NCBI GenBank assembly: GCA_002778465.1
Contig: PFBV01000003.1
Span: 2,397 to 66,396, forward strand
DNA: 64,000 bases
DNA from: Candidatus Magasanikbacteria bacterium CG10_big_fil_rev_8_21_14_0_10_36_32
GTDB lineage: Bacteria > Patescibacteriota > Patescibacteriia > Magasanikbacterales > GWA2-37-8
Reading direction: 5' to 3'
The notes beneath the pieces are model-generated. The model was not told where the DNA came from and did not search any database. It saw only the letters and a program-made list of their open reading frames with translations. The translations under genes were made by a program, and so were the position numbers. This document shows positions 3,251 to 59,367 of the stretch, piece by piece. How positions within the stretch are numbered: the stretch's first letter is position 1; every line of letters begins with the position of its first letter.

Positions 3251-3264
3251 TTTGTGTAAATTAG

Positions 3265-3346
3265 TGCGCGGGAGAGGATTTGAACCTCCATGCCTTGCGG
3301 CGCTACCACCTCAAAGTAGTGCGTCTACCAGTTTCGCCACCCGCGC
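3265..3346 (-). tRNA. tRNA-Leu (anticodon GAG), class II with long variable arm, CCA not encoded
   Basis: Reverse complement gives GCGCGGGTGGCGAAACTGGTAGACGCACTACTTTGAGGTGGTAGCGCCGCAAGGCATGGAGGTTCAAATCCTCTCCCGCGCA. It has a 7-bp acceptor stem, D-arm, anticodon loop TTGAGGT and T-loop GGTTCAAATCC. Confidence 0.8.
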
Positions 3347-10767: not shown

Positions 10768-11922
10768 ATGTTTACCACAACCCAACAACTACAAAAACTT
10801 TTGGAAACAAGCCGCCACATTTTGGTGGTTTTTGGAGCTGAAAAAAATCCGGACGCGATTGCCGGCGCTTTGGCTTTAAAAAAATTCTTTGATAAACAAC
10901 ACAAACAAATTGATTTGGTTTCCACCAATTTCAAACAGCCGTCGGCAATGTCATTTTTGCCAGGATTAGAACAAATAAAGTCTGAACTGACTCATCTGCA
11001 AAAATTCATCATCAAAGTTGATATTTCAAAATCAAAAATTGAAACAATCAGCTATGATGTTAAAGATGATTGGCTGTCCATCAATCTGACGCCAAAACAC
11101 GGTTTCATTACAAAGAATGAATTGCGGACGGCGCAATCTACTTATAAATATGATTTGATTATCACTTTAAGCGCCCAAGATTTGGAGTCGCTGGGTGATA
11201 TTTTTTTAAACAACACCGACCTGTTTTATCGCGTGCCGATTGTTAATATTGACCATCGCCCAAGCAATGAACATTTTGGACAAATCAATCTGGTTGATAT
11301 CAGCGCCACTTCCTCATCTGAAATTATTTTCAAAACTCTGGAACAGCTCAATGCGGCACATATTGATGAAGAAATCGCCACCGCGTTGCTGACCGGCATG
11401 ATAAGCCAGACACGCAGCTTCAAAACTCCAAATGTTAATCCGGACACTTTAAATCTGGCCGGCCGGCTGATGAATCTCGGCGCCGACCGCGAAAAAATTA
11501 TCCGCCATCTTTATTACACAAAATCACTGGCCACCTTAAAATTATGGGGACAGGCTTTAAGTAATCTGCAAAATGACCGCGAAACCGGTCTGGCCTGGAC
11601 CACGGTCACACGGGAAGATTTCGCCCGCTCCGGCGCCAGCGAAGATGATTTACGCGAACTGATTCATGATTTAATCAGCAACTCCCCCGAAATCAAAATG
11701 ATTCTAATTATTTTTGAAAATTCAAACGATAAAAAAATAAATTGTTTACTGGCAACCGAAAAATATTTTGACGCCATGGAATTATCCAAAACATTCAATC
11801 CGTCCGGTGATAAAAAAATCGCCGTTTTTTCCATTTCCGACAAAAATTTGAAGGAAGCGGAAGAAACAGCGGTGACTGAAATCCGAAACAAAGCCAAATT
11901 TCTTCTTTCGGGTTTAAATTAA
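10768..11922 (+). CDS. DHH-family phosphoesterase (NrnA-like oligoribonuclease/pAp phosphatase), DHH motif reads DHR
   Basis: DHH/DHHA1 architecture: ILVVFGAEKNPDAIAGALAL, NIDHRPSNEHFG, GGG-like DHHA1 region. The ORF track start is 10759. The start chosen here is 10768 because of the promoter geometry. Confidence 0.65.
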   Translation: MFTTTQQLQKLLETSRHILVVFGAEKNPDAIAGALALKKFFDKQHKQIDLVSTNFKQPSAMSFLPGLEQIKSELTHLQKFIIKVDISKSKIETISYDVKDDWLSINLTPKHGFITKNELRTAQSTYKYDLIITLSAQDLESLGDIFLNNTDLFYRVPIVNIDHRPSNEHFGQINLVDISATSSSEIIFKTLEQLNAAHIDEEIATALLTGMISQTRSFKTPNVNPDTLNLAGRLMNLGADREKIIRHLYYTKSLATLKLWGQALSNLQNDRETGLAWTTVTREDFARSGASEDDLRELIHDLISNSPEIKMILIIFENSNDKKINCLLATEKYFDAMELSKTFNPSGDKKIAVFSISDKNLKEAEETAVTEIRNKAKFLLSGLN

Positions 11923-13500
11923 ACTTCGGCCGGTCATTTCCGGCGGTAATTCTAAACCCATCAGCGTCAACACCGTTGGCGCAACATCAGCCAATATGCC
12001 AACTGGCGGTATTAAACTTAAATCGCCTTCTGGCGGATCACCGGCCGGACCAGCTTGACCCATAAAATCTTGACTGATTATAAACATCGGCACAGGATTA
12101 GTGGAATGTTCTTTGTCAATTTCATTAGTTTGTAAATTAAGCAATTCTTCAGCATTGCCATGATCAGATGTAATTACGACAGCGCCGCCTTTAGCTAAAG
12201 TATGATCAACTATTTCACCAATACTGCTATCTACCGCTTCACAAGCTTTTATGGTAGCGGCCATATTTCCAGTATGACTAACCATATCACCATTAGCTAA
12301 ATTAACCGCTATAAAAGCATATTTTTCACTTTCAATCGCTTTAACAGTTTCTTTTGTTACTTCAGAAACAGACATTTCCGGTGTTAAATCATAAGAAGCG
12401 ACTTTTGGTGATGGAATTATCAATCTATCTTCTCCGGTAAAAGGTTCTTCTTTTGTACCATTTAAAAAGAAAGTGACATGCGCATATTTTTCAGTTTCGG
12501 CAATATGAAATTGTTTTAAGCCGGCATTGCTAACTACTTCACCTAAACTGTTTCTGATTACTACCGGAGGAAAAGCTACGGCACTAACGGGTACTTCTTT
12601 TTCATATTCAGTCATAGCAGTAAAAAATAAATTGTTTATATTTTTTCTGGCAAACTTATCGAAATTCGGCAAAACAAACGCCTTAGTTATTTGCCGAGCA
12701 CGATCAGGACGAAAATTAAAAAATACAATAGCATCATTATCTTTAATAACAGCAACTGGTTGGTCTTTTTTAACAATAACCGTCGGAGAAAATTCTTCAT
12801 CAAAATTTTTTTGAGAATAAGCTTCATCAATTACTTTTAAAGGATCCTCAGCTGTGCGCTCAGCTTTTCCTTCTACCATGGCATTATACGCTTTTTCACA
12901 ACGATCCCAATGATTGTCCCTATCCATAGTGTAATATCGTCCGGCTAAAGAAGCAATTTTACCTACTTTAATATCTTTCATCTTTTTCATCAGTTGATCA
13001 ATAAAATATTTTCCAGAATTAAAAATTGTATCGCGACCATCTAAAATTGCATGGACAAAAACATTATCAGATAAACCATGTTTTTTTGCTAAATCTAACA
13101 AAGCAAACAAATGAGCGCTATTAGAATGAACTTTACCTTCACTTACTAATCCAAACAAATGTAAATTTGAATTATTTTTCTTAACATGTTCAATGGCTGA
13201 TAAAAATGCTTGATTTTTAAAAAATTCTCCACTTTCTATATCATGGTCAATACGAGGTAAGGTTTGATAATAAACTCTTCCAGCGCCTATATTTAAGTGA
13301 CCGACTTCCGAATTTCCCATTTCACCAAAAGATAAACCCACCTCTGTGCCAGCAGCCATCAAAGTCATTATGGGATAGTTTTTAATATAATTTTTTAAAT
13401 TTACAGTATTAGCTTTTTCTACAGCATTACCATCACCAGCCGGAGCAATACCCCAACCATCAGCAATAATAAGAACTACGGGTTTATATTTATAAGTCAT
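11914..13500 (-). CDS. gpmI: 2,3-bisphosphoglycerate-independent phosphoglycerate mutase (iPGM), copy 1
   Basis: VVLIIADGWGIAP, SDHGNAE and LNLANGDMVSHTG motifs. 528 aa. Confidence 0.85.
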   Translation of the reverse strand: MTYKYKPVVLIIADGWGIAPAGDGNAVEKANTVNLKNYIKNYPIMTLMAAGTEVGLSFGEMGNSEVGHLNIGAGRVYYQTLPRIDHDIESGEFFKNQAFLSAIEHVKKNNSNLHLFGLVSEGKVHSNSAHLFALLDLAKKHGLSDNVFVHAILDGRDTIFNSGKYFIDQLMKKMKDIKVGKIASLAGRYYTMDRDNHWDRCEKAYNAMVEGKAERTAEDPLKVIDEAYSQKNFDEEFSPTVIVKKDQPVAVIKDNDAIVFFNFRPDRARQITKAFVLPNFDKFARKNINNLFFTAMTEYEKEVPVSAVAFPPVVIRNSLGEVVSNAGLKQFHIAETEKYAHVTFFLNGTKEEPFTGEDRLIIPSPKVASYDLTPEMSVSEVTKETVKAIESEKYAFIAVNLANGDMVSHTGNMAATIKACEAVDSSIGEIVDHTLAKGGAVVITSDHGNAEELLNLQTNEIDKEHSTNPVPMFIISQDFMGQAGPAGDPPEGDLSLIPPVGILADVAPTVLTLMGLELPPEMTGRSLI

Positions 13501-13503
13501 ATT

Positions 13504-15099
13504 TTATTTAATTAAAGACCGACCGGTCATTTCTTTAGGCTGTTTGACACCCATCATTTTTAAAATTGTTGGCGCAACATCAGCCAATTTTCCTTTTTTC
13601 ATTTTTAAACGTTTTTTATAAAAATGTTCCCCAATCAAAAATAACGGCACCATATTGGTTGAATGTTCAGTATTAATTTCACCAGTTTTTAAATCAACTA
13701 ATTCTTCAGCATTGCCATGATCAGCGGTGACAATACCTTGCCCACCATTTTTTTTAATAATTTTAATTAAACGCTCTACTTCAGAATCTACAGTTTTTAC
13801 GGCGATTTCTGTAGCTTTAATATCACCGGTATGAGCGACTATATCAGGATTGGCAAAATTAACACAAATAAAATCATATTCACATGACTCAATGGCATGA
13901 GAAACATAATCTGATACCATGCCGGCGTTCATTTTTGGTTTTTTTGAATAATTGTCAACTGCAACGGAATTAATTTTTACCCAACGATCCTCACAAAAAT
14001 GGTGGCTATAACCGCCATTAAAAAAGTAAGTCACGTGGGCAAACTTTTCTGTTTCGGCCACAAACAATTGACGGCGCGGACATAAAATTTGTACTAAACT
14101 GTTAGTTACATCACGACTCGGAAAAGCGGTTAAAACACCGGGTAAATCAGGACCAAAGTCAGTCATGGCCACAAAACGAATATTTCTTGGTAATTTTTCC
14201 CGAACAAAAGAATTATCATTTTCTTTGTCAAAACTTCTTTGGACAAAAACTTTTGTTAATTCACGAGCACGATCACTTCTTAAGTTAAAGAAAAATATTG
14301 CATCATTACTGCTAATTTTTCCCACAGGTTCTCCTTTTTCAATAATTACCGTCGGTTGAATAAATTCATCTGTTTCACCTCGATTATATGCCTGCAGAAC
14401 GGCTTCAGTGGCACTCGGAGCTTTATGTTTAGAATTCGCCAAAACCAAAGCATCATAAGATTGTTTGATTCTTTTCCATGTTTTGCTTCTGTCCATGGCA
14501 TAAAAACGACCCATTATAGTGGCAATTTTTTCACCATTATTCAAATGTTCATATAACTTCTTTAAATGATGCGGCGCATCGTGTTGAGACGAATCTCGAC
14601 CATCAGTAAATAAATGCAAATAAACTTTTTTAAATTTTTCTCGACGCAATAAATCCATTAAAGCATATAAATGTTCTGGACAAGAATGGGCGCTATTATG
14701 ATTTGAAAGTAAACCCATTACATGAATGGAGCTATTATATTTTTTAACATGATAAAACGCTTGATGAAAAGCATTATTCTTAAAAAAGGTTCCATCATTA
14801 ATCGCGTCGGATATATACATTGCGTCTTGCTTAACCACTCGTCCGGCACCCAAATTAATATGGCCGGCTTCACTATTCCCTTCTTGACCCTTAAATAAAC
14901 CGACGGATGTGCCACTCGCTTGCAATTCAGTATGCGGATAATCTTTCAACCAACGAAAATAATTAGGAGTAATATTTGGTTGAATCGGATTTCCTTTATT
15001 TTTTAAAGGAGCTACCCCCCATCCATCCATAATAATTAAAACCGTAGTTTTTTTATTTTTTGTATTATGATGTTTTTTATTTTTAACGGCCATAATCAA
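13504..15099 (-). CDS. gpmI: 2,3-bisphosphoglycerate-independent phosphoglycerate mutase paralog (iPGM), copy 2
   Basis: VLIIMDGWGVAP, TADHGNAE, NFANPDIVAHTG. Divergent from copy 1 and in tandem with it. Confidence 0.8.
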   Translation of the reverse strand: MIMAVKNKKHHNTKNKKTTVLIIMDGWGVAPLKNKGNPIQPNITPNYFRWLKDYPHTELQASGTSVGLFKGQEGNSEAGHINLGAGRVVKQDAMYISDAINDGTFFKNNAFHQAFYHVKKYNSSIHVMGLLSNHNSAHSCPEHLYALMDLLRREKFKKVYLHLFTDGRDSSQHDAPHHLKKLYEHLNNGEKIATIMGRFYAMDRSKTWKRIKQSYDALVLANSKHKAPSATEAVLQAYNRGETDEFIQPTVIIEKGEPVGKISSNDAIFFFNLRSDRARELTKVFVQRSFDKENDNSFVREKLPRNIRFVAMTDFGPDLPGVLTAFPSRDVTNSLVQILCPRRQLFVAETEKFAHVTYFFNGGYSHHFCEDRWVKINSVAVDNYSKKPKMNAGMVSDYVSHAIESCEYDFICVNFANPDIVAHTGDIKATEIAVKTVDSEVERLIKIIKKNGGQGIVTADHGNAEELVDLKTGEINTEHSTNMVPLFLIGEHFYKKRLKMKKGKLADVAPTILKMMGVKQPKEMTGRSLIK

Positions 15100-25185: not shown

Positions 25186-27648
25186 TTATTGTACCAATTC
25201 ATTCAAGGCGGCACGAGTTAACGGACCGAGCCAACCTGGATATGGAGATAAATTTTTATCTTGTTGGAATTTAACCACCGCCGCTTTAGTAACATTGCCA
25301 AAGTAACCGGTGATAGTAGGATATGTGAAATAACCAAGATCTTTCAATAATTGTTGCAATTGGGTAACAGCCTCGCCTCTGGAACCAATATAAAGATAAT
25401 TCTTAAATTGATAACCGGTAGGCGTGACAACCGCAACTGCCGGAGTTTCTTCAACAACAACTTCTTCTGTGACGGGTTTGGTTAATTTGTTCAAAGCAAT
25501 ACGGGTTAACGGACCAATATGTCCGGGAAATGAAGAAAAACCTTGGGCTTGTTGGAATTTAACTACCGCCGCTTTAGTAATATTACCAAAGTAACCGGTG
25601 ATGGATGAGTAGGTATAATAACCTAAATCTTTTAATAATTGCTGTAACTGTTTAACTTCTTCACCTTGCGAACCAACGCCTAAATAATTATTAAACTGAG
25701 CGGTGACATTAGTGGTAACAACCGGAGTAATTGGAGTTTCGGTAGTGGTTTCAGCTACAGTTTCAGTTGTAGTTTCTGTGACAGTTTCGGTAGTGGTTTC
25801 AGCTACAGTTTCAGTTGTAGTTTCTGTGACAGTTTCGGTAGTGGTTTCAGCTACAGGAGCAACATATGAAGAACCAGATGAAGAACCACCCCCACCGCCC
25901 GAATAAGCACTAACTGAATAATTAGCTGTGTCAGTGTCAGTATCAGCACTCTCTTTACTATCAACAAAAGCTAAAGATAAACTATGATCACCAGAAACAT
26001 TGAGCTGTCCATTGTTTGATAATGCGCCAGCAGTCACTACCAGTGGCAAAGCTGAACTGCGAAATATGCCGGTATCCACTCCTGTTTCGGTTAATGTAAT
26101 TGCCTCACTGTCAGAATAAGGACTGGCGGTAATCAGTGAACCGCTAATTGTGTCAGCAACTGTGTTACTTAAATTACCATCATGATCTTCTACGGTAACA
26201 TAGACAGAATCAGCGGAAGTAAAAGTTGACACTTCCGTACCGGCGCTATTGGTCAATTTAACTGAAGTCGCAGGATGTTTAATGGCGCCATTTTCCGTGA
26301 TAGTCCCATTATTATCAAATGTTACCGGAGCGTAAAGATATTTATCAGCCCAAATCGTAGTGGTACCACTATTTATAAACGAATTGGATGAAGTGGCACT
26401 ATCACTAAAAAAATATGTGCCGGTTCCAAAAACCAAATCATAATAAGTTTCTGCTGTACTGGTCACTGCACCGGTACTGGTATATTGCACATTAGAAGCA
26501 CTGGAAGAAAAAATACCATTATTTACCAGTGGGGTTCCTGAACCTGATAAAACAAGGGTGTATGTGGCGGCGTCAAATTCCGTATCAGTATCAACAGTTA
26601 ACACATTAGTAACAGTCAAATTACCAGCTAAAGTAGTAGTAACACCTGTAGTAGTTAAATTATAGAATGTAGTGTCACCGGTTCCACCCAAAGTATAATT
26701 AGCGCTCTCATCTGTCATGGACACTGTACCGGAAGTTTGGGTGACTGTGCCAGAATTGTCTAAATTACAAGCCAAATCCAAATCATAAGCAGCTAAATCT
26801 AAAGTTGAATTTTCGTCAATACTTATATTACTATCTATATCAATATTACCAGCTAAAGTGACAGTAGAAGAAGTAAGAGTTAAGTTGTACAAAGTAGTAA
26901 CACCGGAACCGCCCAAAGTAACTCCTTGACCACTTCTCATAATAGTATAACTGGCGTTTGATTGTGTAACTGTACCGGAATTATAAAAATTACCATCAAC
27001 AATTAATTCGTTATTTATTGCACTTAAAATCAAACTCTTACCTGAATTAACAGTAATATCATTATTTACAATCACAAAATTAGTTCCATTTGATGTATAA
27101 GAACCATCAATGACTAAGTTATAAAAATCAACACTTGTTGTACTAATTGTTAATGTTGCATCATCACCATAAAGTACAACATTCATACCTGTTAAACCGG
27201 CCCATTTGGCATTACCATTAATAATAAAACTTCCGCCGACACGAAATACACCACTGCCTGTTGTTGAAACTGTACCTCCAGCTTGGTAAAAATATGAAGT
27301 AGTGGCATTTGCTTCACCAATTGAAACTACTCCATTATAAGTTACATCAATTGCAACACTAAGCGTAGTTGTTAAACCTGTGTCCCAAATAGCGTTAGTA
27401 GAAGTAGCTTCAGGGGAAAGATAATCGCTTCTAAGCTGCAAACCAGCGCCAACAACATTAGAACAAGGACTGCCATCAGCAAGCGCGGAATCATACCAAT
27501 TAGTTGGGTCACTCATATTTTGACTGGAAGAAGCTGTCCAATAACAACTTAATCCCGCAGCTGAAGCCGGAGCGACATTACCAAATAAAAACCACGCGCC
27601 GACTAAAATAGCGGCGGCAAACGAAATTTTTCTCCACGACATATTCAT
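25186..27648 (-). CDS. large secreted protein with signal peptide, beta-helix-like N-region, TETTTETV repeat region and two C-terminal peptidoglycan-binding (PG_binding_1) domains
   Basis: Signal peptide MNMSWRKISFAAAILVGAWFLFGNVAPASA. The LQQLLKDLGYYTYSSITGYFGNITKAAVVKFQQ module occurs twice at the C-terminus. Ser/Thr-rich repeats. Confidence 0.6.
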   Translation of the reverse strand: MNMSWRKISFAAAILVGAWFLFGNVAPASAAGLSCYWTASSSQNMSDPTNWYDSALADGSPCSNVVGAGLQLRSDYLSPEATSTNAIWDTGLTTTLSVAIDVTYNGVVSIGEANATTSYFYQAGGTVSTTGSGVFRVGGSFIINGNAKWAGLTGMNVVLYGDDATLTISTTSVDFYNLVIDGSYTSNGTNFVIVNNDITVNSGKSLILSAINNELIVDGNFYNSGTVTQSNASYTIMRSGQGVTLGGSGVTTLYNLTLTSSTVTLAGNIDIDSNISIDENSTLDLAAYDLDLACNLDNSGTVTQTSGTVSMTDESANYTLGGTGDTTFYNLTTTGVTTTLAGNLTVTNVLTVDTDTEFDAATYTLVLSGSGTPLVNNGIFSSSASNVQYTSTGAVTSTAETYYDLVFGTGTYFFSDSATSSNSFINSGTTTIWADKYLYAPVTFDNNGTITENGAIKHPATSVKLTNSAGTEVSTFTSADSVYVTVEDHDGNLSNTVADTISGSLITASPYSDSEAITLTETGVDTGIFRSSALPLVVTAGALSNNGQLNVSGDHSLSLAFVDSKESADTDTDTANYSVSAYSGGGGGSSSGSSYVAPVAETTTETVTETTTETVAETTTETVTETTTETVAETTTETPITPVVTTNVTAQFNNYLGVGSQGEEVKQLQQLLKDLGYYTYSSITGYFGNITKAAVVKFQQAQGFSSFPGHIGPLTRIALNKLTKPVTEEVVVEETPAVAVVTPTGYQFKNYLYIGSRGEAVTQLQQLLKDLGYFTYPTITGYFGNVTKAAVVKFQQDKNLSPYPGWLGPLTRAALNELVQ
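25741..25856. repeat. tandem repeat, 48-nt unit in ~2.4 copies, encoding ETTTETVTETTTETVA repeats inside the 820-aa gene
   Basis: The unit ggtagtggtttcagctacagtttcagttgtagtttctgtgacagtttc is repeated exactly at 25741-25788 and 25789-25836, with a partial third copy. Confidence 0.75.
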
Positions 27649-35435: not shown

Positions 35436-35466
35436 ATAAAAAAAGCCACCGATTTGATTCAGTGGC
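35436..35466 (-). terminator. intrinsic terminator downstream of the Cys-rich small ORF
   Basis: Hairpin gccac-cgatttgattca-gtggc, followed by a T-run on the minus strand. Confidence 0.5.
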
Positions 35467-35497
35467 CTTATGTGAAAGAACTGCTGTTAAGAAAACC

Positions 35498-35809
35498 TTA
35501 GATGTCGTCTTCGTCCTTGAAGAAACCGATGTTGTCGCAAGGACAAGCTTCGCGCTGTAAACGCTCTTGACGGTACTCGTGACAATAGGAACACTCTTCG
35601 GACGAAAGACACATGGCACCCAGATAGCCCTGCTTCTCTCGCTCAATACACCGCTTCTCAATGTCACTCCCATGCGATACCTCGTATACATGGCCAGCCA
35701 AACACTGAACGTTGTACGTGATATCCTCCTTGTTTTGCCTATTTTTAGTAAGACTTGATTGATTTTCCAAAGAACGGATTATTATATCATATTTTAAAAC
35801 TTTTGTCAA
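35498..35809 (-). CDS. small soluble Cys-rich protein (CxxC..CxC, acidic C-terminus) in a GC-rich island; start codon uncertain
   Basis: Protein-like frame ...CLSSEECSYCHEYRQERLQREACPCDNIGFFKDEDDI. GC and C-ending codons are far above genome background. A consensus promoter inside the annotated 5-prime end argues for a shorter product. Confidence 0.4.
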   Translation of the reverse strand: MTKVLKYDIIIRSLENQSSLTKNRQNKEDITYNVQCLAGHVYEVSHGSDIEKRCIEREKQGYLGAMCLSSEECSYCHEYRQERLQREACPCDNIGFFKDEDDI

Positions 35810-45207: not shown

Positions 45208-45236
45208 TTGACAAAACCTTCAAAATGTGCTATAAT
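45208..45236 (+). promoter_or_regulatory. consensus sigma70 promoter TTGACA-17-TATAAT (TG-extended) for small-protein family member A, followed by ~140-nt leader with twin mini-hairpins
   Basis: TTGACAaaaccttcaaaatgtgcTATAAT. The leader contains gcggtaaaacccgc and ccggtaaaaccgg, then the SD AAAGGAGA. Confidence 0.55.
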
Positions 45237-45382
45237 GGCAAGTTGTGAATAGATGGAAAACCTTGTTTTCTATATATGAACAACGCCGCCATTTCAAGAT
45301 TGGCTTATAACACTCTATTCTTTAACAAAATGCGGTAAAACCCGCAAAAACATCCGGTAAAACCGGACAAAGGAGACAAACA

Positions 45383-45700
45383 ATGGCACAGATGACGAAA
45401 AACGAATCGCGATTTTGTATCGTTATGCTGCTGGTGGTGTGGAGCGTCATAATGTTGGGTGTCGGCAGCTACACCAGACAGGGCGACCGTCTGAAACTCG
45501 ACAACAACGAAACCTACAACATCATCGCCATCGTGGACCCGGACGCTCCCGGCAATGTGGCGGAAATCGTCATTTCCGAAACAGACGATCCCAACGACCA
45601 CCACTTCGCCTACATCTACAAGGATTGTCTGAAATCCTACCACACGGGAGCCAACTACTTGCTCCAGCTGAGTACCCGCAATTGCATTTGGCTCCCCTGA
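45383..45700 (+). CDS. small membrane-anchored secreted-domain protein, family member A (two conserved Cys, C-terminal CIWLP)
   Basis: N-terminal TM RFCIVMLLVVWSVIMLGVG. C-domain YNIIAIVDPDAPGNVAEIVISETDDPNDHHFAYIYKDCLKSYHTGANYLLQLSTRNCIWLP. GC-rich with C-ending codons. Confidence 0.6.
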   Translation: MAQMTKNESRFCIVMLLVVWSVIMLGVGSYTRQGDRLKLDNNETYNIIAIVDPDAPGNVAEIVISETDDPNDHHFAYIYKDCLKSYHTGANYLLQLSTRNCIWLP

Positions 45701-45721
45701 CCAATCGTTCTTTCTAAAAAA

Positions 45722-45750
45722 TCAGCCCCGTCATTTGACGAGGCTTTTTC
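45722..45750 (+). terminator. intrinsic terminator of family member A (shared with member B)
   Basis: cagccccgtc-attt-gacgaggct followed by ttttt. Confidence 0.6.
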
Positions 45751-45760
45751 TTTTGTTTTC

Positions 45761-46453
45761 CTACAGATGATATATCACATCTTTTCTTTCCACCACCACC
45801 GGCCAACCATGTCGTTTAGCATGCTTGTACAATCTCTGATTCGGATTAAAACAAATCGGCCGCTCCACCAATTTTAAAACGCGAATATCAGATTCTGTAT
45901 CTCCTACTCCGACCGAACCTTTCAATGTTAAATTATTCAATTTAACCGCCCGTTTCAACAATGTCGCTTTATTAAAAATAATAGCATCTCTTTCACCGTT
46001 CAAAATATTTTTATCATTGGTTTTATAAATCAAACCGTAATATTTATCAAAACCCATCAAATGACAAAACTCATGAACAACTTCTTTCGGCGAATGAGAA
46101 ATAGCCAACAAAAAATAACCTTTGGATTTTAATTCTTTAACTAAATCGCGAGTATAACGGTAAACTCGATTCTTGTGAAAATCGGAAACACGTTTAGCCA
46201 CTTTAAAAAAATTTTTATAAGGAACACCTTTAATGTGGCGATTAAAAGTTTTTACAATATCCATAATATAATCTTCATAAGTGCCGACACGATTCAACCA
46301 ATTTTTATACGACTTGGCATATTCCTTATTAACCGAAGACGGAAAAATTCTCTCTTGAATTAAGGCGTCTAAAATTTCAATCAACAAACTGGAACGAAAA
46401 ATTGTTCCATCAATATCAAACACCGCAACTTTTTGTTTGGTTTTATTAGACAT
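45761..46453 (-). CDS. HAD-superfamily hydrolase/phosphatase
   Basis: Motif I VAVFDIDGTIF (DxDGT). Motif GDTESD near the C-terminus. Confidence 0.6.
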   Translation of the reverse strand: MSNKTKQKVAVFDIDGTIFRSSLLIEILDALIQERIFPSSVNKEYAKSYKNWLNRVGTYEDYIMDIVKTFNRHIKGVPYKNFFKVAKRVSDFHKNRVYRYTRDLVKELKSKGYFLLAISHSPKEVVHEFCHLMGFDKYYGLIYKTNDKNILNGERDAIIFNKATLLKRAVKLNNLTLKGSVGVGDTESDIRVLKLVERPICFNPNQRLYKHAKRHGWPVVVERKDVIYHL

Positions 46454-46493
46454 AATTTTTTTATAATTAATGCTAATTGAATATTAACACCTA

Positions 46494-47330
46494 TTAATTT
46501 GCCGTAATTCTGCCGGACAATTGCTTTTGCATTTCTTGCAAATTATTTTTTATTAAAGCTTTTTGAATTTCTAAAGTATCCAATCCACCGGATTTAAAAG
46601 AAGATATTTTATTATTAACGACCATATCTTGAATAATACAATTTGAAATCCACGCTTGTTGCCAAACAGACGATTCTTGCCGAATAAAATTTTTAACCGT
46701 CTTTTTTCCTATTTTAAATTCTTCAATATCACTGTCGTTTATTTCAATAATTTCATTGGACGAAACAGATACTGTGCTATCCGCCAAATTATTTTCTTTT
46801 TCCGGATCAACCACGGTTAAGGCGGCTTTATTTTCCGCCACAACCAACAAAGTTTTTCCTTCTGAATATTCCACGCCAAAAGCCCCCACTTGACCAAACA
46901 CAACCGCGTTGTCAGTTTTTACTTCCCAAGATGAATCACCCGGCGAGCCCACTATTTTTGACCAAATTTGTCCGGTTTTAAGAATAATTTTCACTGCCAA
47001 TGCATTTTTTTTAAAATTAAAAACAGCTTTGTCCAATTCAATTTCTGTGTTGCCACCCAAACGAATTACTGAACCATTAGCTAAATAAATATTAGCTGAT
47101 TCGGACGATTCTGTTTTTAAAATAATCGGCGCCATTATTTCATCACCGCTATATATTTTACGACCCGTCATCGCTTCTTCAATACCATTGCCGGATGATG
47201 GGGCGAAAATTTCAATCCAATTTAAACCCTGTAAATTATTATCCGCCGGAGCATTAATCCGCCCGACATAGAAAAAAATACCGATTAAAACAGCAATGAA
47301 AACAAAAATATAAAATATTATTCTTCGCAT
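46494..47330 (-). CDS. FecR-domain-like membrane-anchored protein
   Basis: N-terminal TM. The beta-rich region ANIYLANGSVIRLGGNTEIEL ... WEVKTDNAVVFGQVGAFGVEY resembles FecR (PF04773). Confidence 0.4.
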   Translation of the reverse strand: MRRIIFYIFVFIAVLIGIFFYVGRINAPADNNLQGLNWIEIFAPSSGNGIEEAMTGRKIYSGDEIMAPIILKTESSESANIYLANGSVIRLGGNTEIELDKAVFNFKKNALAVKIILKTGQIWSKIVGSPGDSSWEVKTDNAVVFGQVGAFGVEYSEGKTLLVVAENKAALTVVDPEKENNLADSTVSVSSNEIIEINDSDIEEFKIGKKTVKNFIRQESSVWQQAWISNCIIQDMVVNNKISSFKSGGLDTLEIQKALIKNNLQEMQKQLSGRITAN

Positions 47331-47442
47331 AATTTTAAATATTCATCTTAACTTCTTATAAGTATTATATTACAAAAAACTATTTATTTCAACACTAAAA
47401 AATTAAAAACCCCGACCGAAGTCGAGGTTAAGAAAGAACAAA

Positions 47443-48624
47443 CTAAAAAGTCATCTCCAAGCCGAAACCGACATTGTGCAAATCAAACGTAAGATTATAC
47501 TCGTAAACAGCGCGCAAATGGAAACCGCGCAAGTTGGCGGACAATCCAGCCGTGATGAAATCATTGGCGCGAAAAAACATATCATTTTCACCGTGAATGT
47601 AACCGAATTGCGGTGAAATACTGAATTTGTCATTGCCCAATGTATAAAGCGTTCCGATTTGCCAAGTCAATCCATCCTGCAAATTTTCAAAATCGGTTCC
47701 TAATTTCCAACTATCTTTTCCTAAAACATGCAACGGAGTCACTACCGTTCCGACTGAAAATCGAGGATTTTCAGATTGCGAATCACCGTTATACCAAACG
47801 GTGCCGAAATTTTCTGCTGTCACTGCCAGTCTGGCATCTAAAATCGGATCATGAAAAGCGACAGTGGAAGATAAATCAACAGCAAAACCAATTCCGGATA
47901 AACAATTGAAATCAGGCGTCTGCAAAGCGTTTTCAAACGTGGCAAGACCGAGATGTCCGTTAAATCTAACGGCGGTTTTTGGCGATAACCAACGATGCAT
48001 TACTCGACCCTGAACGCCAGCTGACAATTCAATGCCCAACGGCAATTCAAACATACGAGTGTATCCAATCAATCCGCCGATGTCGGAACGAATCGCTATG
48101 GCAGCGATATCCGGTGTGCCGGAAAAATCAACATAACTGTTAATACCATCATGAACGACAGGCAGCGGGGATGTATCCAATGGAGCATTGTGAATAACGA
48201 CATCATTTTCATTGTAAGCGCCAACCGTCAGTCGGCCGATTTTTTTTGTTCCCCAAGAAATGCGAAATGGTTCAACGCGAGCGCGCAAACCAAAATTCAT
48301 TGTCGGTCTTTTGTTGACTGCTATGATAGCGGCCAAAGAATTTCCGGCATTGAACATATCCGAATACAAATCAATCGCATCATCGGATTCCGTCCAATTA
48401 CCAATCACATCCAAATTAAAAACAGAAAATTTCCAACCTTCTGTTGAAGAAATAACATTTGACAAAATACGGCTGTCCAAAGTCAAATCTACTCCGCCCA
48501 GTCCGCGATATTCCAGCGACTCAATTTTTCTGATTTCTCCAGAATCCGCTGAAACATTCGTCACTCCAAAAAAGACGGCAATCGCAATAACCATGGTCAA
48601 ATACCTAAACATTTTATACTCCAC
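47443..48624 (-). CDS. secreted beta-barrel-like protein ending in C-terminal Phe (OMP-like signature)
   Basis: Signal peptide MFRYLTMVIAIAVFFGVTNVSA. Amphipathic beta strands alternate, with many Gly and aromatic residues. The C-terminus is ...HNVGFGLEMTF. Confidence 0.4.
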   Translation of the reverse strand: MEYKMFRYLTMVIAIAVFFGVTNVSADSGEIRKIESLEYRGLGGVDLTLDSRILSNVISSTEGWKFSVFNLDVIGNWTESDDAIDLYSDMFNAGNSLAAIIAVNKRPTMNFGLRARVEPFRISWGTKKIGRLTVGAYNENDVVIHNAPLDTSPLPVVHDGINSYVDFSGTPDIAAIAIRSDIGGLIGYTRMFELPLGIELSAGVQGRVMHRWLSPKTAVRFNGHLGLATFENALQTPDFNCLSGIGFAVDLSSTVAFHDPILDARLAVTAENFGTVWYNGDSQSENPRFSVGTVVTPLHVLGKDSWKLGTDFENLQDGLTWQIGTLYTLGNDKFSISPQFGYIHGENDMFFRANDFITAGLSANLRGFHLRAVYEYNLTFDLHNVGFGLEMTF

Positions 48625-48820
48625 ATCTAAGGCAATTTTGCCTCTTTGGTTATCAAATGACTTTAATTGTTAAAGAACTTACCTAATGTATCCATATCAT
48701 AAAATATAAATGCTGTCAATCAATTGTCACAAACTATAAATTAAAAATTCAATTTCATAATCTCCTGATAATTCGTAATTTATAATTTTTTATTTACCTA
48801 AAATTAGCTAAACTAAAGTA

Positions 48821-48849
48821 TTGACAAAATCTCTAAAATATGCTATAGT
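48821..48849 (+). promoter_or_regulatory. sigma70-like promoter TTGACA-17-TATAGT for family member C
   Basis: TTGACAaaatctctaaaatatgcTATAGT. The spacer is homologous to the member A promoter. Confidence 0.5.
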
Positions 48850-48907
48850 ACTTCGTTATTTTCACAAAATAACCAAGTCACAACGAGGACAAAAACAAGG
48901 AGATGCA

Positions 48908-49222
48908 ATGAAACACAGTATGCGTTCGCTGATTGTCGCTTGCGTAATCTACTTTTTATTCGGAATGACCGTGGGAAGCATTCTCGGAACCAACGGGGTT
49001 GAGGGCCGCTCAACCGAACTTGAAGACGGAAGATATGAACTCATCAATGTCGTCGGCGCCGACCCGATTGATCAAAGTCGAACCGAAGTGGTGGTAAAAG
49101 AAAACAACGAGTTCAATATTCACCGATTCGTGACTATGACGCCGGAATGTTTCAACAACTACAACGACGGCGACAAGGTTTTGGTTGTGATCAATGACTG
49201 GTGTTACTGGCTCAGAGAATAA
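48908..49222 (+). CDS. small membrane-anchored protein, family member C
   Basis: SD AAGGAGA at 5 nt spacing. TM LIVACVIYFLFGMTVGSILG. C-domain YELINVVGADPIDQSRTEVVVKENNEFNIHRFVTMTPECFNNYNDGDKVLVVINDWCYWL. GC-rich. Confidence 0.55.
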   Translation: MKHSMRSLIVACVIYFLFGMTVGSILGTNGVEGRSTELEDGRYELINVVGADPIDQSRTEVVVKENNEFNIHRFVTMTPECFNNYNDGDKVLVVINDWCYWLRE

Positions 49223-49299
49223 TTTTTCATTAAACATCCGCAATCTCTCCGCCAGATATCCATCCACATTGTTCTTTCCTGTCTATTTAGGACAAAACA

Positions 49300-49322
49300 A
49301 CCCCGCATTAATGCGGGGTTTT
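49300..49322 (+). terminator. intrinsic terminator of family member C
   Basis: aaccccgcat-taat-gcggggtttt. Confidence 0.55.
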
Positions 49323-49326
49323 CCTA

Positions 49327-49355
49327 TTGACACAAATATTAAAATATACTATAAA
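49327..49355 (+). promoter_or_regulatory. sigma70-like promoter TTGACA-17-TATAAA for family member D
   Basis: TTGACAcaaatattaaaatatacTATAAA. It starts 5 nt after the member C terminator. Confidence 0.5.
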
Positions 49356-49422
49356 TAAGATGCTCTTTTAAATTAAACTCAGGGTTTTAAAAACACAAAA
49401 ATAAAAAAGGAAGGAAAAAGGG

Positions 49423-49764
49423 ATGAAAGATTTTTTGTTTATGATAAGTGCTTGGGTTATTGGTATTATGACGGGAGCACTTATTTTTTTTTCGTCGCAT
49501 AACACAGGCAAAAGTTTGCAACTTAGCACTGGCAACTACAATATTGTTCACATCATGGATAAGTCCGAAGATATCAGCGAACCAAGACAAGAACTGCTCG
49601 TGTCCACTATGAATAACCCGACTAAACATCTCTTTGTGACAGTGTCCGAAAAATGCTTCGCCAGCTACTTTGCCGGCGCTGAACTTCTAATTATAAATAA
49701 CGACGACTCGTGCATCTGGACGACCACCCGACGTCCACCATCACCCGAATTTGATATACCGTAA
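49423..49764 (+). CDS. small membrane-anchored protein, family member D
   Basis: SD AAGGAAGGAAAAAGGG. TM ISAWVIGIMTGALIFF. C-domain YNIVHIMDKSEDISEPRQELLVSTMNNPTKHLFVTVSEKCFASYFAGAELLIINNDDSCIWT. The 3-prime half is GC-rich. Confidence 0.55.
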   Translation: MKDFLFMISAWVIGIMTGALIFFSSHNTGKSLQLSTGNYNIVHIMDKSEDISEPRQELLVSTMNNPTKHLFVTVSEKCFASYFAGAELLIINNDDSCIWTTTRRPPSPEFDIP

Positions 49765-49784
49765 ATATCGTTCTTTTTCTCATC

Positions 49785-49812
49785 AGCCTCACACAAAATG
49801 TGAGGCTTTTTA
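49785..49812 (+). terminator. intrinsic terminator of family member D
   Basis: agcctcaca-caaaa-tgtgaggct followed by ttttt. Confidence 0.55.
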
Positions 49813-49889
49813 TTTAAAAATAAAATTTCAAAATTGACAATTCCGCCATAAGTGGCATAATATTAGAGTAATTATATTTTAATGATTTA

Positions 49890-52664: not shown

Positions 52665-52712
52665 TTGTTAATGAACTGCTTTATATATAACAAATTTAAA
52701 CAAAAAAGTCAA
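52665..52712 (-). promoter_or_regulatory. 48-nt promoter-containing direct repeat, copy 1 (TTGACT-17-TATATA on the minus strand), driving the Cys-rich small-protein pair
   Basis: Identical to 53556-53603 apart from the flanks. The reverse complement is TTGACTtttttgtttaaatttgtTATATAtaaagcagttcattaacaa. Confidence 0.5.
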
Positions 52713-52752: not shown

Positions 52753-52775
52753 AAAAGAACAAATTAACAAAAAAA

Positions 52776-53387
52776 TTAACCGATTTTATCGTCATCCGTA
52801 AACGACAAATCGGACGATTTAATATCAAATGACACATTCATATCCAAAGCCGCTTGGGCCAGCTTTGCAAACTCTTCATTTTGCATGATTTTGTCCGTTT
52901 GGGACTTTTCCAATATGTAATCATGAATCTCACAAGAAAAATTCCAAATTACGTGCAACGCCAGCGGTATCCAAATTGTCTGCAATAAAATTCCCACCAC
53001 ACAACTAATAATTCCAAATAACAACATCGGTATCATCAGGGCAAACTTATAAATTATTTTTTTCTCATCTTTAAAGTTATACCAATGCAAACCGCTGAAT
53101 ATGACACTGGAAATAATAATGGCAATTCCGGCGACAACGGTTAACTCGGAAAAGAAAAAAATAATCGGCAAACGAAAAACCATTTCTTCGCCAGTGGGTC
53201 CAATAACGCAAGCTTCCATGCCGTCATTCAACCAATACATCTTGAAAAAATTTTTATAAAACCATTTGGCATTGCCGCATTTCTTGCTATATAATTTATT
53301 TGCCGCCGCCCTAACCAATGCCGCAAAAATTATAATCACAATAAGAATTAAAAACGGTGGTAAAAATTCAATAAATCTTTCCAACAT
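52776..53387 (-). CDS. CPBP-family intramembrane glutamic endopeptidase (CAAX protease/Abi-type bacteriocin-immunity-like)
   Basis: Motif 1 EExxxR (GEEMVFRLPI), motif 2 FxxxH (FSGLHWYN), motif 3 HxxxN (HVIWNF). 6 TM. Confidence 0.7.
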   Translation of the reverse strand: MLERFIEFLPPFLILIVIIIFAALVRAAANKLYSKKCGNAKWFYKNFFKMYWLNDGMEACVIGPTGEEMVFRLPIIFFFSELTVVAGIAIIISSVIFSGLHWYNFKDEKKIIYKFALMIPMLLFGIISCVVGILLQTIWIPLALHVIWNFSCEIHDYILEKSQTDKIMQNEEFAKLAQAALDMNVSFDIKSSDLSFTDDDKIG

Positions 53388-53555
53388 TTTTTATTCTCCT
53401 GTTGGCCGCAACCTTACGTTTTAGCTTGTTTGTCGTACGGAAACAATTTTTTTCCATTTCATCCGACAGACAAAGTATACTATCGGCCCTTGTACCAACG
53501 CTTTTTTCTTTTTTGGATTACCACATCCTATTGCCTTTTTCCGTCAACTGACGAA

Positions 53556-53603
53556 TTGTTAATGAACTGCTTTATATATAACAAATTTAAACAAAAAAGT
53601 CAA
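53556..53603 (-). promoter_or_regulatory. 48-nt promoter-containing direct repeat, copy 2, driving the CPBP protease gene via a ~165-nt leader
   Basis: Same 48-nt sequence as 52665-52712. The leader is GC-richer and potentially structured. SD AGGAGA lies 8 nt before the ATG at 53387. Confidence 0.5.
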
Positions 53604-53616
53604 CTATTAACAAGAG

Positions 53617-53645
53617 TTGACTTCAATAACAATTTAATATATAAT
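53617..53645 (+). promoter_or_regulatory. consensus sigma70 promoter TTGACT-17-TATAAT for tRNA-Val, head-to-head with the CPBP promoter
   Basis: TTGACTtcaataacaatttaataTATAAT. The tRNA 5-prime end lies 14 nt downstream. The -35 boxes of the two divergent promoters form the inverted repeat aagtcaac..gttgactt. Confidence 0.55.
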
Positions 53646-53658
53646 GATTTTACTTTAA

Positions 53659-53732
53659 GCACGCCTAGCTCAGTTGGTTAGAGCACCTCGTTTACACCGA
53701 GGGGGTCAGGGGTTCAAATCCCTTGGCGTGCA
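53659..53732 (+). tRNA. tRNA-Val (anticodon TAC), CCA not encoded
   Basis: GCACGCCTAGCTCAGTTGGTTAGAGCACCTCGTTTACACCGAGGGGGTCAGGGGTTCAAATCCCTTGGCGTGCA: canonical cloverleaf, anticodon loop TTTACAC. Confidence 0.85.
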
Positions 53733-53738
53733 CATTTA

Positions 53739-58145: not shown

Positions 58146-58174
58146 TTGACACAACACTCAAAATGTATTATCTT
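58146..58174 (+). promoter_or_regulatory. sigma70-like promoter TTGACA-17-TATCTT for family member B (homologous to the member A promoter)
   Basis: TTGACAcaacactcaaaatgtatTATCTT. The spacer ..caaaatgt.. is shared with member A. It places the real start at ATG 58234, not the ORF-track start 58177. Confidence 0.45.
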
Positions 58175-58233
58175 AATTGAAAATTGCTCTTTTGAGCCAC
58201 TGCGGTCTGAAAGACCAAAAAGGAGAAATAACA

Positions 58234-58587
58234 ATGGAAGAGACTGTGGCGGAAAAAAATAAAGAGGAAGAGAAAGATCCTCACTCCGGATGGTGGATTT
58301 CTATATGCGGTATTATCATTTTTCTGCTCGGCCTTATGCTGGGGACGTTTATATGCCTAGGCGACAGCGAAACGCTTGGAAGCACAGACACCGGCGATGT
58401 CTACAACTTCATCGCTTTCGTGGATAAGAACGCTCCCAACGGCACAGTGGAGGCGGTCATTTCCGACACTGACGATCCTGACGATCATCATTTCATCTCT
58501 ATGACCAAAAAGTGCGCCGCCACTTACCACAAAGGCGCCCGTTACGTTCTCGTCGTGAACTTGAACAAATGCATCTGGCTCCCCTGA
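58234..58587 (+). CDS. small membrane-anchored protein, family member B (closest to A)
   Basis: SD AAAGGAGA. TM WWISICGIIIFLLGLMLGTFICL. C-domain YNFIAFVDKNAPNGTVEAVISDTDDPDDHHFISMTKKCAATYHKGARYVLVVNLNKCIWLP. GC-rich. Confidence 0.6.
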   Translation: MEETVAEKNKEEEKDPHSGWWISICGIIIFLLGLMLGTFICLGDSETLGSTDTGDVYNFIAFVDKNAPNGTVEAVISDTDDPDDHHFISMTKKCAATYHKGARYVLVVNLNKCIWLP

Positions 58588-58609
58588 CCAATCGTTCTTT
58601 CTAAAAAAT

Positions 58610-58637
58610 CAGCCCCGTCATTTGACGGGGCTTTTTA
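58610..58637 (+). terminator. intrinsic terminator of family member B (near-identical to the member A terminator)
   Basis: cagccccgtc-attt-gacggggct followed by ttttt. The 65-nt block 58563-58637 nearly matches 45676-45750. Confidence 0.6.
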
Positions 58638-58638
58638 T

Positions 58639-59367
58639 TTATATTTTCATCAAACTTAAAACAATTGTTTCACTATTTTTCTTTTTCTTTCCAAAACGAT
58701 CATAATATTCTATTTTTATTTTTTTAAATCCGGCGGATTTTGCCAAACTTTTTAATTCATCGGCGGTAAAATAATGTAAATATCTCATTACTTCTTTTCC
58801 TCGTGTCCCCTTCCATGGCACGCAGACATCGCCGCTATCATATCCGTCGGAAATTTTTTTTAATTGATTTTTAATATCATATTTTTTACAAGCCCATTTT
58901 TCAAGCAAATTCCAACTGGTTATCACCGCTTTGCTGCCGGTTTTTAAAACGCGAAAAATTTCTTTTAAAAATTTTTCTCTCAATTCAACGGATGGTATAT
59001 GATGGATAACGGCAAAAGAAAAAATAAAATCAAATTGATTTTTTTTAAAAGGCAAATCAACGGCATCAGCAACAAAAAATTTAGCTTTTTTATTTTTTAT
59101 ATTCACAACATTTTTTTTCTTGGCTTCCATAATCAATTTTACTGAAATATCCGACCCAAAATAACGACCACCGCGCTTAATCGCCTCGTCAGCCATTAAA
59201 CCATTGCCACAACCAATATCAAGAACACTAAAACCTTTTGCAATATTCCTTAATAATTTTATTTTAATTAAAGATGGTATAGACCGGCTAATATTCCACT
59301 CCTTGGCAATGATATTGTAATTTCTTCTGGTTTCGCTTATAATGCTTAAAGCTTTTCGTTTTTCCAT
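58639..59367 (-). CDS. class I SAM-dependent methyltransferase (Methyltransf_11 type)
   Basis: Motif I VLDIGCGNGLMADEAIKRGG. Motif post-I GSDIS. 242 aa. Confidence 0.65.
   Translation of the reverse strand: MEKRKALSIISETRRNYNIIAKEWNISRSIPSLIKIKLLRNIAKGFSVLDIGCGNGLMADEAIKRGGRYFGSDISVKLIMEAKKKNVVNIKNKKAKFFVADAVDLPFKKNQFDFIFSFAVIHHIPSVELREKFLKEIFRVLKTGSKAVITSWNLLEKWACKKYDIKNQLKKISDGYDSGDVCVPWKGTRGKEVMRYLHYFTADELKSLAKSAGFKKIKIEYYDRFGKKKKNSETIVLSLMKI

Follow-up and report, generated by a model that had tools for sequence, protein, structure and literature searches.

In some bacterial lineages that are poor in Shine-Dalgarno (SD) sequences, a strong SD is kept on a few genes, such as rpsU of the Bacteroidota. 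Most bacteria of the Candidate Phyla Radiation (CPR/Patescibacteria) have not been brought into culture, and over half of their genes have not been characterised. Highly expressed bacterial genes are said, on the authority of Sharp et al. in 2005, to prefer the C-ending codons of Phe, Tyr, Ile and Asn. Small genes of atypical composition that are self-contained or flanked by junctions are also known, namely phage morons and the cassettes of integrons. We analysed a window (the whole stretch of DNA under study, 64,000 nt) from Candidatus Magasanikbacteria bacterium CG10_big_fil_rev_8_21_14_0_10_36_32 (assembly GCA_002778465.1, contig PFBV01000003.1), where four small genes of one family (A, B, C and D) shared traits with each of these systems. 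As in the SD-poor lineages, most genes of the window were SD-less and a small set had a strong and correctly spaced SD, although both the lineage and the genes differed from those of the Bacteroidota case. The presence of a four-member family rich in GC at the third codon position (GC3) was confirmed, and the GC3 anomaly was real. Moreover, a fifth gene (E) encoding an unrelated protein had the same promoter, boxes, SD, terminator and GC3, so that the composition and the regulatory anatomy marked an expression class and not a protein family.

The GC content of A, B, C and D was 52.5%, 49.4%, 46.7% and 41.8%, respectively, compared with 35.6% for the window. Their GC3 values (Table 1) were all above the maximum of 0.425 found among the 54 other open reading frames (ORFs) of the window, which had a mean of 0.305 and a standard deviation of 0.052; the corresponding z-scores were 8.3, 5.9, 5.3 and 2.9. 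A previous sequence-only reading of this DNA had described the coding regions of the family as GC-rich with C-ending codons, and this was clearly so for A, B and C and only modestly so for D. GC at the first and second codon positions was ordinary, and the flanking 100 nt on each side were AT-rich. Thus, the anomaly was purely synonymous and ended at the start and stop codons.

The share of C-ending codons among those ending in C or T (NNC/(NNC+NNT)) was 0.63 in the family versus 0.29 in the genes of the + strand and 0.15 in those of the - strand. The family used TAC for 93% of its Tyr residues (background 13-17%), AAC for 70% of Asn and GTG for 47% of Val, and among its Leu codons CTC made up 31% (background 2-3%) and TTA 3% (background 39-44%). 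In counts of NNC to NNT codons, the preference was 14:1 for Tyr, 21:9 for Asn, 8:4 for His and 18:12 for Asp. Relative to the genome, the C-ending codons of Phe, Tyr, Ile and Asn were preferred, as in a translationally selected class. The magnitude of the bias was unusual, since GC3 reached 0.74 in a genome averaging 0.30. The + strand was C-rich in the window (negative GC skew), and this accounted for part of the C excess. Strand skew was rejected as the full cause because, measured relative to the background of the same strand, the family (+) and E (-) both gained about +0.2 in C and +0.09 in G at the third position (C3 and G3).

The sequence-only reading had tied the compositional and regulatory signature to the protein family, a link that did not survive the comparison with the non-homologous unit E. 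The E protein had no family in Pfam, NCBIfam, PADLOC, PHROGs or the PDB profiles, and its GC3 was 0.58 (C3 0.30, G3 0.28). Its start codon was apparently not ATG (ATC or ACG) and stood directly past the SD. The pattern TTGACA-N8-AAAATRTRY-TAT matched the window at five sites, where chance would give 0.2, and the promoter of E was the fifth of them. SD-like motifs preceded A to E and about 4 of the 55 other genes of the window, where the remaining leaders were AT-rich. Across AT-rich Patescibacteria loci, GGAG or GAGG was found upstream of about 8% of ORFs. An anti-SD motif was detectable in only 48% of Parcubacteria (PMC9297842). In the window, promoter score was correlated with GC3 (rho 0.48, p 0.006), and the non-family genes with promoters of at least 11/12 had a mean GC3 of 0.37 versus 0.305 for the rest.

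All four family ORFs were found on the + strand as the sequence-only reading had placed them, and in the NCBI annotation D and B were hypothetical proteins. They shared an N-terminal transmembrane (TM) helix followed by a domain of about 65 aa. Amino-acid identity to A was 21-42%, and 12 columns of the MAFFT alignment were invariant among the four paralogs, including both Cys, the Trp and the His and Phe of an H-x-F motif. A profile made from the four paralogs scored each of them with E-values of 1e-33 to 1e-41 against 1.84e9 proteins. The two Cys of the conserved pattern that had been noticed before stayed invariant when eight outside homologs were added. In this alignment of 12 members, Y45, C82, C101 and W103 were invariant and E61 and F75 nearly so, and the C-terminus distinguished A/B-like (C-[IV]-W-L-P), C-like (C-Y-W) and D-like (C-[IL]-W-T) subtypes.

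The distribution of the family was narrow. When 1.84 billion representative proteins were searched exhaustively with a HMMER profile, 13 matched: the four paralogs, eight true relatives and a repeat protein that was a false positive. Only A, B, C and D came from the source genome, which thus appeared to hold only four copies. Word-indexed homolog searches returned the source genome's own four proteins and three relatives on short contigs. The eight relatives were 101-145 aa long, had the same architecture and were all located on short metagenome contigs (below, loci from other organisms carry L numbers and members found there P numbers). The contigs of two relatives were syntenic with the window. 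P0009 was convergent with a HAD hydrolase gene, like A, and tandem members on L013 lay upstream of the same Trp/Tyr permease gene as C and D. A tandem of a C-like and a D-like member was also present on L010. No member was found in 80 HAD-anchored genome loci from other Patescibacteria or in 69 permease-anchored metagenome loci, and a scan of metagenomes with the A/B-type sub-alignment had no matches. Therefore, the family was confined to close relatives, a narrow Magasanikbacteria-related clade. The description of a lineage-specific, membrane-anchored family without a characterised domain was borne out by these profile searches and by the library searches described below.

The neighbouring HAD and permease proteins were 78% and 85% identical between the window organism and the organisms of L012 and L013, with ratios of non-synonymous to synonymous substitution rates (dN/dS, omega) of 0.10 and 0.08 at a dS of 1.1-1.4. 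Between the same organisms, positional orthologs of the family were only 26-42% identical with a dN/dS of 0.22-0.52. The family evolved 3-5 times faster than its neighbours and was still under purifying selection; omega above 1, the mark of positive selection, was not seen in it. The orthologs nevertheless exceeded their AT-rich neighbours in GC3, namely 0.51 versus 0.07 in L005, 0.57 versus 0.44 in L012, and 0.60 and 0.68 versus 0.42-0.53 in L013. Since dS was 1.1-2 and synonymous sites were near saturation, this enrichment argued that the composition was actively maintained, as the sequence-only reading had supposed on the grounds that long-resident paralogs should have ameliorated.

The explanation that we favoured, with an even chance of being right in our judgement, was that A to E are SD-led units of maximal strength for very abundant small proteins and that their synonymous GC is upheld by selection on translation and mRNA. 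The cassette combines a consensus -35 element, a 17-bp spacer, a TRTG-type extended -10 and a consensus -10, which would drive transcription at maximal strength. Transcription would start inside a YGYTCTTT box, and the leader usually has a small GC hairpin. Initiation would be directed by a strong SD, an element that is missing from almost every other gene of this genome, and a strong terminator closes the unit. The enrichment in GC and C-ending codons would be a synonymous trait of the expression class, the unrelated E included. Against an AT-biased mutation pressure, selection on mRNA and translation would promote codons that end in C and are read by G34 tRNAs, and the same selection would promote a GC-richer, more decay-resistant message. 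The family itself would represent a fast-evolving OB-like module displayed on the envelope. Both the high expression of A to E and the nature of this selection were suggested by the sequence signals. In favour of the explanation counted the restriction of the enrichment to third positions, its recurrence in orthologs, the shared cassette of E, the scarcity of SDs in other genes, the correlation of promoter score with GC3, the NNC preference of L31, the tRNA-Leu(GAG) gene for CTC and the conservation of promoter, leader and 3' elements between organisms.

Several observations weighed against this explanation. The enrichment of D was modest, and the correlation between promoter score and GC3 included paralogs that were not independent. 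Ribosomal protein L25 had no codon bias (GC3 0.26). Ribosomal protein L31 (30465-30773) favoured NNC at two-fold sites (0.58, n=24) and, unlike the family, kept TTA and T-ending four-fold codons, with a four-fold T fraction of 0.42 versus 0.20 in the family. Thus, high expression alone did not generally raise GC3 here. In L008 (0.58 versus 0.68) and L009 (0.42 versus 0.89), two short contigs with GC-rich backgrounds, the GC3 of the member was not above that of the neighbour; these cases agree equally well with a more or less constant GC of the family and with selection, and they leave room for a mobile pool.

The ribosomal proteins also bore on a simpler account, in which classical tRNA adaptation alone leads the family to use the translationally optimal codons of the genome. 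The strong NNC preference was indeed common to the family and L31, as in the bias of highly expressed genes, and tRNA-Leu(GAG), the cognate reader of CTC, was encoded in the window. However, the family additionally shifted its four-fold sites and Leu codons to C or G, L31 and L25 showed neither this four-fold preference nor the avoidance of TTA, and E favoured the G-ending codons of Lys, Glu and Gln. The codons of the family were therefore not a simple copy of the ribosomal-protein codon set, and we gave tRNA adaptation alone little chance. The sequence-only reading had held that every housekeeping gene of the window, ribosomal proteins included, uses A/T-ending codons; this was not strictly true, given the two-fold sites of L31. 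The tRNA-Leu(GAG) gene itself (3264-3346, -) was kept in a small AT-rich genome whose genes, apart from the GC3-rich class, used CTC for only 2-3% of Leu.

The conservation of the flanks raised another possibility, namely that ORFs are exchanged as cassettes or recurrently acquired by horizontal transfer. They would be swapped among related strains or species that differ in GC content, through recombination in the conserved flanks (promoter and box on one side, box and terminator on the other), so that their composition and SD would reflect a shared mobile pool. The non-coding elements (promoter, leader and 3' untranslated region (3'UTR)) were better conserved between organisms than the coding sequence (CDS). 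The 22 nt past the stop codon (TGA-CCAATCGTTCTTTCTAAAA) were identical in A, B and P0005, a tract of 75 nt comprising the last codons, 3'UTR and terminator was 95% identical between A (45679-45753) and B (58566-58640; repeat family D4), and the C-type 3'UTR (…CTCTTTCCTGTC…AGGACAAA-terminator) recurred in L010 and L013. The positional orthologs of the family had also diverged far more than the neighbouring genes. Cassette exchange would also agree with an SD use atypical for the genome, with the box-hairpin-SD junctions that part promoterless copies in L006 and L013, and with the range of the members' GC3, which was 0.42-0.84 whatever that of their neighbours (0.07 to 0.89). On the other hand, the enrichment affected codon position 3 only while the first two positions and the UTRs were host-like, the subtypes were syntenic across organisms, and the family was absent outside the clade. 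Additionally, four independent assemblies from different samples matched the window with 100% identity along 20 kb and 8.6 kb, and no recombinase or mobile-element gene was present among the neighbours scanned, which were a part of the window ORFs. We considered cassette exchange unlikely, though clearly less so than tRNA adaptation alone. The recent multi-copy acquisition that the sequence-only reading had listed as an option was disfavoured, because only third positions were enriched, the UTRs were AT-rich, synteny was conserved and homologs were absent outside the clade.

An integron gene cassette in the strict sense was rejected, because the YGYTCTTT box did not resemble the integron core site GTTRRRY and no recombinase domain was found among the same scanned neighbours. 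The family resembled phage morons and integron cassettes in the promoter and terminator of each gene, its atypical composition, a repeated junction module of box and hairpin and the promoterless tandem copies of L006 and L013. It differed from them in its conserved synteny, its third-position-only anomaly and a box unlike the attC core, and no integrase or phage genes were among the neighbours scanned. Readthrough of the TGA codon into the conserved 3' segment was rejected as well, since P0007 had TCGTTCTTT in another frame, which indicated that the element was non-coding. A diversity-generating retroelement (DGR) or phase variation was rejected given that the window had no repeat resembling a template/variable repeat pair except the 3' tract of A and B and that the four assemblies were identical; the 90% clusters of family proteins, which held 1-3 sequences, counted against DGR-type variation too, and a reverse transcriptase was not searched for genome-wide.

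The tract shared by A and B also spoke for GC-biased gene conversion, which could raise GC3 among paralogs or at a recombination hotspot without selection on expression. Its 95% identity, in genes whose coding proportion of synonymous differences (pS) was 0.66, indicated that ectopic conversion occurs. Yet the converted tract was AT-rich UTR and terminator and not the GC-rich body, and the paralogs were too divergent for ongoing conversion along the whole CDS. The enrichment was sharply bounded by the start and stop codons and spared positions 1 and 2, and the single-copy E had the same GC3. Biased conversion, which had been one of the options put forward before, therefore seemed quite improbable to us.

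Finally, GC might serve an RNA-level function or an overlapping gene, that is, a stable structure in an mRNA or non-coding RNA or an antisense ORF. The CDS of A folded slightly better than its shuffles (z -2.04), and long antisense ORFs existed. In comparison, the z-scores were +0.23 for B, +0.96 for C and -0.10 for D, no Rfam family was matched, antisense stop codons were not depleted relative to codon shuffles (59 versus 44.6; 73 versus 91.6), and the substitution pattern was that of a protein-coding sequence. We saw hardly any chance for this explanation, and with it the selection on a specific mRNA structure that had been suggested before was left without a basis in the folding values.

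The expression units showed the anatomy on which the favoured explanation of strong SD-led cassettes would build (Table 1). The SD of A, B and C was the same and stood 4-8 nt upstream of ATG, and that of D was AGGAAGG. The terminators of the four genes consisted of 9-bp GC stems and T-runs, were bidirectional and were common to convergent genes. The earlier claim that each copy is an independent transcription unit with a homologous promoter, an SD and a terminator thus proved correct. The 8-mer YGYTCTTT occurred 24 times in the window versus 13.7 expected. It was located just past the stop codons of A, B, C and D and, in B and D, also where transcription is predicted to start; the leader of A had the relaxed form TATTCTTT. 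The 5' copy fitted the Y-R-Y start element followed by the initial transcribed region of Kuo et al. 2025 (PMC12641261). Most leaders had a small GC hairpin just upstream of the A-rich SD, whose stem sequence varied between copies (GGTCT/AGACC, GCGGT/ACCGC, TCCGG/CCGGA, CCGT/ACGG). The leader of A, with a folding energy of -14.9 kcal/mol (RNAfold), was 146 nt long and about 85 nt longer than those of B, C and D, the extra stretch (45237-45315) lying between promoter and box. Between the promoterless copies arrayed in tandem in L006 and L013, the whole intercistronic junction consisted of box, hairpin and SD. The 3' box and terminator hairpin of the monocistronic copies may be homologous to this junction module. 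The box also contained TTNTTT, which presumably resembles the NusG-dependent pause motif of Bacillus subtilis.

Table 1. Positions of the features of units A to E in the window, followed by GC3 outliers in loci of other Patescibacteria (positions within the respective locus). UTR, untranslated region; promoter scores are matches out of 12.
Feature	Position	Strand	Details
Promoter of A	45208..45236	+	TTGACA-17-TATAAT, 12/12, TG extended -10
5'UTR of A	45237..45382	+	box TATTCTTT 45316-45323; hairpins 45332-45345, 45353-45367; SD AAGGAGA 45370-45376
CDS of A	45383..45700	+	105 aa; TM helix at about residues 6-31, then predicted OB-like domain; GC3 0.74
3' end of A	45706..45752	+	box CGTTCTTT 45706-45713; bidirectional terminator, stem 45724-45745 and T-run
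Promoter of C	48821..48849	+	TTGACA-17-TATAGT, 11/12, with TG
SD of C	48897-48903	+	AAGGAGA
CDS of C	48908..49222	+	104 aa; GC3 0.58
3' end of C	49270..49326	+	box TGTTCTTT 49270-49277; terminator stem 49299-49320
Promoter and 5' box of D	49327..49368	+	TTGACA-17-TATAAA 49327-49355; box TGCTCTTT 49361-49368
CDS of D	49423..49764	+	113 aa; NCBI COU29_00930; GC3 0.46
3' end of D	49769..49815	+	box CGTTCTTT 49769-49776; terminator stem 49785-49807
5' region of B	58146..58226	+	promoter TTGACA-17-TATCTT (10/12) 58146-58174; box TGCTCTTT 58185-58192
Leader of B	58204-58226	+	hairpin GGTCT/AGACC 58204-58216; SD AAGGAGA 58220-58226
CDS of B	58234..58587	+	117 aa; NCBI COU29_00985; GC3 0.61
3' end of B	58593..58640	+	box CGTTCTTT 58593-58600; bidirectional terminator, stem 58611-58632
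Unit E	35441..35809	-	same cassette, protein unrelated to the family
Promoter of E	35809-35781	-	12/12, with TG; match of the shared promoter pattern
5' box of E	35777-35769	-	CCGTTCTTT
SD of E	35731-35725	-	AAGGAGG
CDS of E	~35722-35498	-	~74 aa, 8 Cys, no TM; start codon uncertain
3' box of E	35483-35475	-	CAGTTCTTT
Terminator of E	~35469-35441	-	past the 3' box
Outlier in L117	~9338-9847	-	169-aa lipoprotein-like ORF; GC3 0.85 vs 0.33
Outlier in L122	2231-2581	-	GC3 0.79 vs 0.34
Outlier in L084	14167-14619		GC3 0.60 vs 0.35
Outlier in L037	8045-8536		GC3 0.77 vs 0.56

Two non-family genes of the window were also followed by the box. One copy of TGTTCTTT (47433-47440, -) lay just past the stop codon of a 393-aa signal-peptide protein gene (47443-48624, GC3 0.40), which had a terminator downstream at 47429-47408, and another (52754-52761, -) just past the stop codon of an Rce1-like gene. 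The 3' box was therefore not exclusive to the family.

As to the protein, the four genes encoded what on sequence grounds appeared to be a new orphan family of small, predicted membrane-anchored proteins of about 100-115 aa without a characterised domain. No member had a family match in Pfam, PHROGs, NCBIfam, PADLOC or the PDB sequence profiles. The AlphaFold model (predicted local distance difference test score (pLDDT) 90) was a small OB-like barrel, with five strands in a predicted closed beta-barrel and a helix between strands 3 and 4 as in the OB fold. The fold class was thus recognisable in the model and a close structural relative was absent, so that the earlier statement that no characterised domain can be recognised held for the sequence and not for the predicted structure. 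The conserved residues were mostly core positions and the Cys pair. The C-terminal domain of about 65 aa is probably pinned by this pair through a predicted C82-C101 disulfide. The N-terminal helix probably acts as a type II membrane anchor that displays the domain, with its fast-evolving surface, outside the cytoplasmic membrane, and a ligand-binding or surface role for the family seems plausible.

Known families of similar appearance were considered as well. CcmE (PF03100) was rejected, as none of the 12 members had a Pfam match at E<10 and identity was 3%. The C-terminal haem-binding H-x-x-x-Y tail of CcmE was absent from the family, whose members ended in C-x-W-[LIT]-P and had the invariant Cys pair in its place; moreover, the family was multi-copy and monocistronic in the window, and the neighbours scanned included no ccm genes. 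The BOF or YgiW-YdeI proteins (PF04076), which are periplasmic, resembled the family as small exported bacterial proteins that have an OB fold, are about 100 aa long and whose ligands are unknown. Identity with BOF/YgiW was rejected for want of a Pfam match at E<10 or an NCBIfam match; unlike them, the family had a signal-anchor in place of a cleaved signal peptide, and it was limited to a narrow clade. A type IV pilin or pseudopilin was rejected because the N-termini lacked the Gly-Phe/Met cleavage motif and the Glu at +5 and no pilin Pfam family was matched.

Abundant surface proteins are prime candidates for mediating the episymbiotic lifestyle of CPR/Patescibacteria. Being compact, probably very abundant and fast-evolving, with a TM anchor and a predicted disulfide-pinned OB-like module, the family offers a target for structural and binding studies. 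It also provides a natural case in which synonymous GC stayed far above the genomic equilibrium (0.74 versus 0.30) across speciation and at position 3 only, and in which this anomaly went along with initiation led by an SD in a genome mostly devoid of such sequences. The case bears on what makes selection or conversion favour GC in bacteria and on how translation initiation is partitioned in SD-poor lineages.

Control loci from other AT-rich Patescibacteria contained small genes, unrelated to the family, that encoded signal-peptide proteins or lipoproteins and were extreme GC3 outliers (Table 1). SD-like motifs were present in all four, and upstream of three (L117, L037 and L084) lay matches to a -10 or extended -10 or to a fuller promoter of the TTGACA type. 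Across loci, 36% of GC3 outliers versus 8% of other ORFs had an SD (p 2e-6), a weak comparison that we treated as a lead only and did not rely on, given that the outliers were contaminated by spurious ORFs and that GC-rich sequence holds GGAG more often by chance. A broader proposal would be that A to E belong to an undescribed privileged class of SD-dependent, GC3-recoded small genes in an AT-rich genome that otherwise does not depend on SDs, bracketed by conserved YGYTCTTT-hairpin modules that serve post-transcriptional control or cassette exchange, and that L117, L122, L084 and L037 are further instances of a general CPR strategy for surface and secreted proteins. We regarded this proposal as doubtful, on a par with cassette exchange of the family.

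Some features of the related loci and of the window stood apart from these questions. In L013, P0010 was followed by a third tandem copy (about 845-925, its 3'UTR extending to about 1030) of which only the C-terminal half was left (…SYFASHVGGAELLIVVNNQEKCP*). This copy retained the junction hairpin, SD, C-type 3'UTR and terminator and is probably a decaying paralog. In L008 (125-658), the member P0011 divergently adjoined an ECF sigma factor gene, and in the window a FecR-domain protein (46494-47330) was encoded between A and C. No link of the family to ECF sigma factors was evident, the family promoters being of the sigma-70 and not the ECF type.

Elsewhere in the window, an exact 48-nt direct repeat (52665-52712 and 53556-53603) flanked a segment of 891 bp that held the Rce1-like/CPBP gene (52776-53387, -, GC3 0.42) as well as the beginning of an 83-aa ORF (53430-53681). 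The second copy of the repeat was inside this ORF, and a tRNA-Val(TAC) gene (53659-53733) adjoined the segment, which could stem from a minor integration or duplication event at a tRNA gene. An 820-aa ORF (25186-27648, -) had 12-nt (4-aa) tandem repeats at 25735-25878 as well as internal repeats of 216 nt and 76 nt. At 11914-15099 (-), two adjacent paralogous ORFs of about 530 aa had a 104-nt segment in common at 77% identity.

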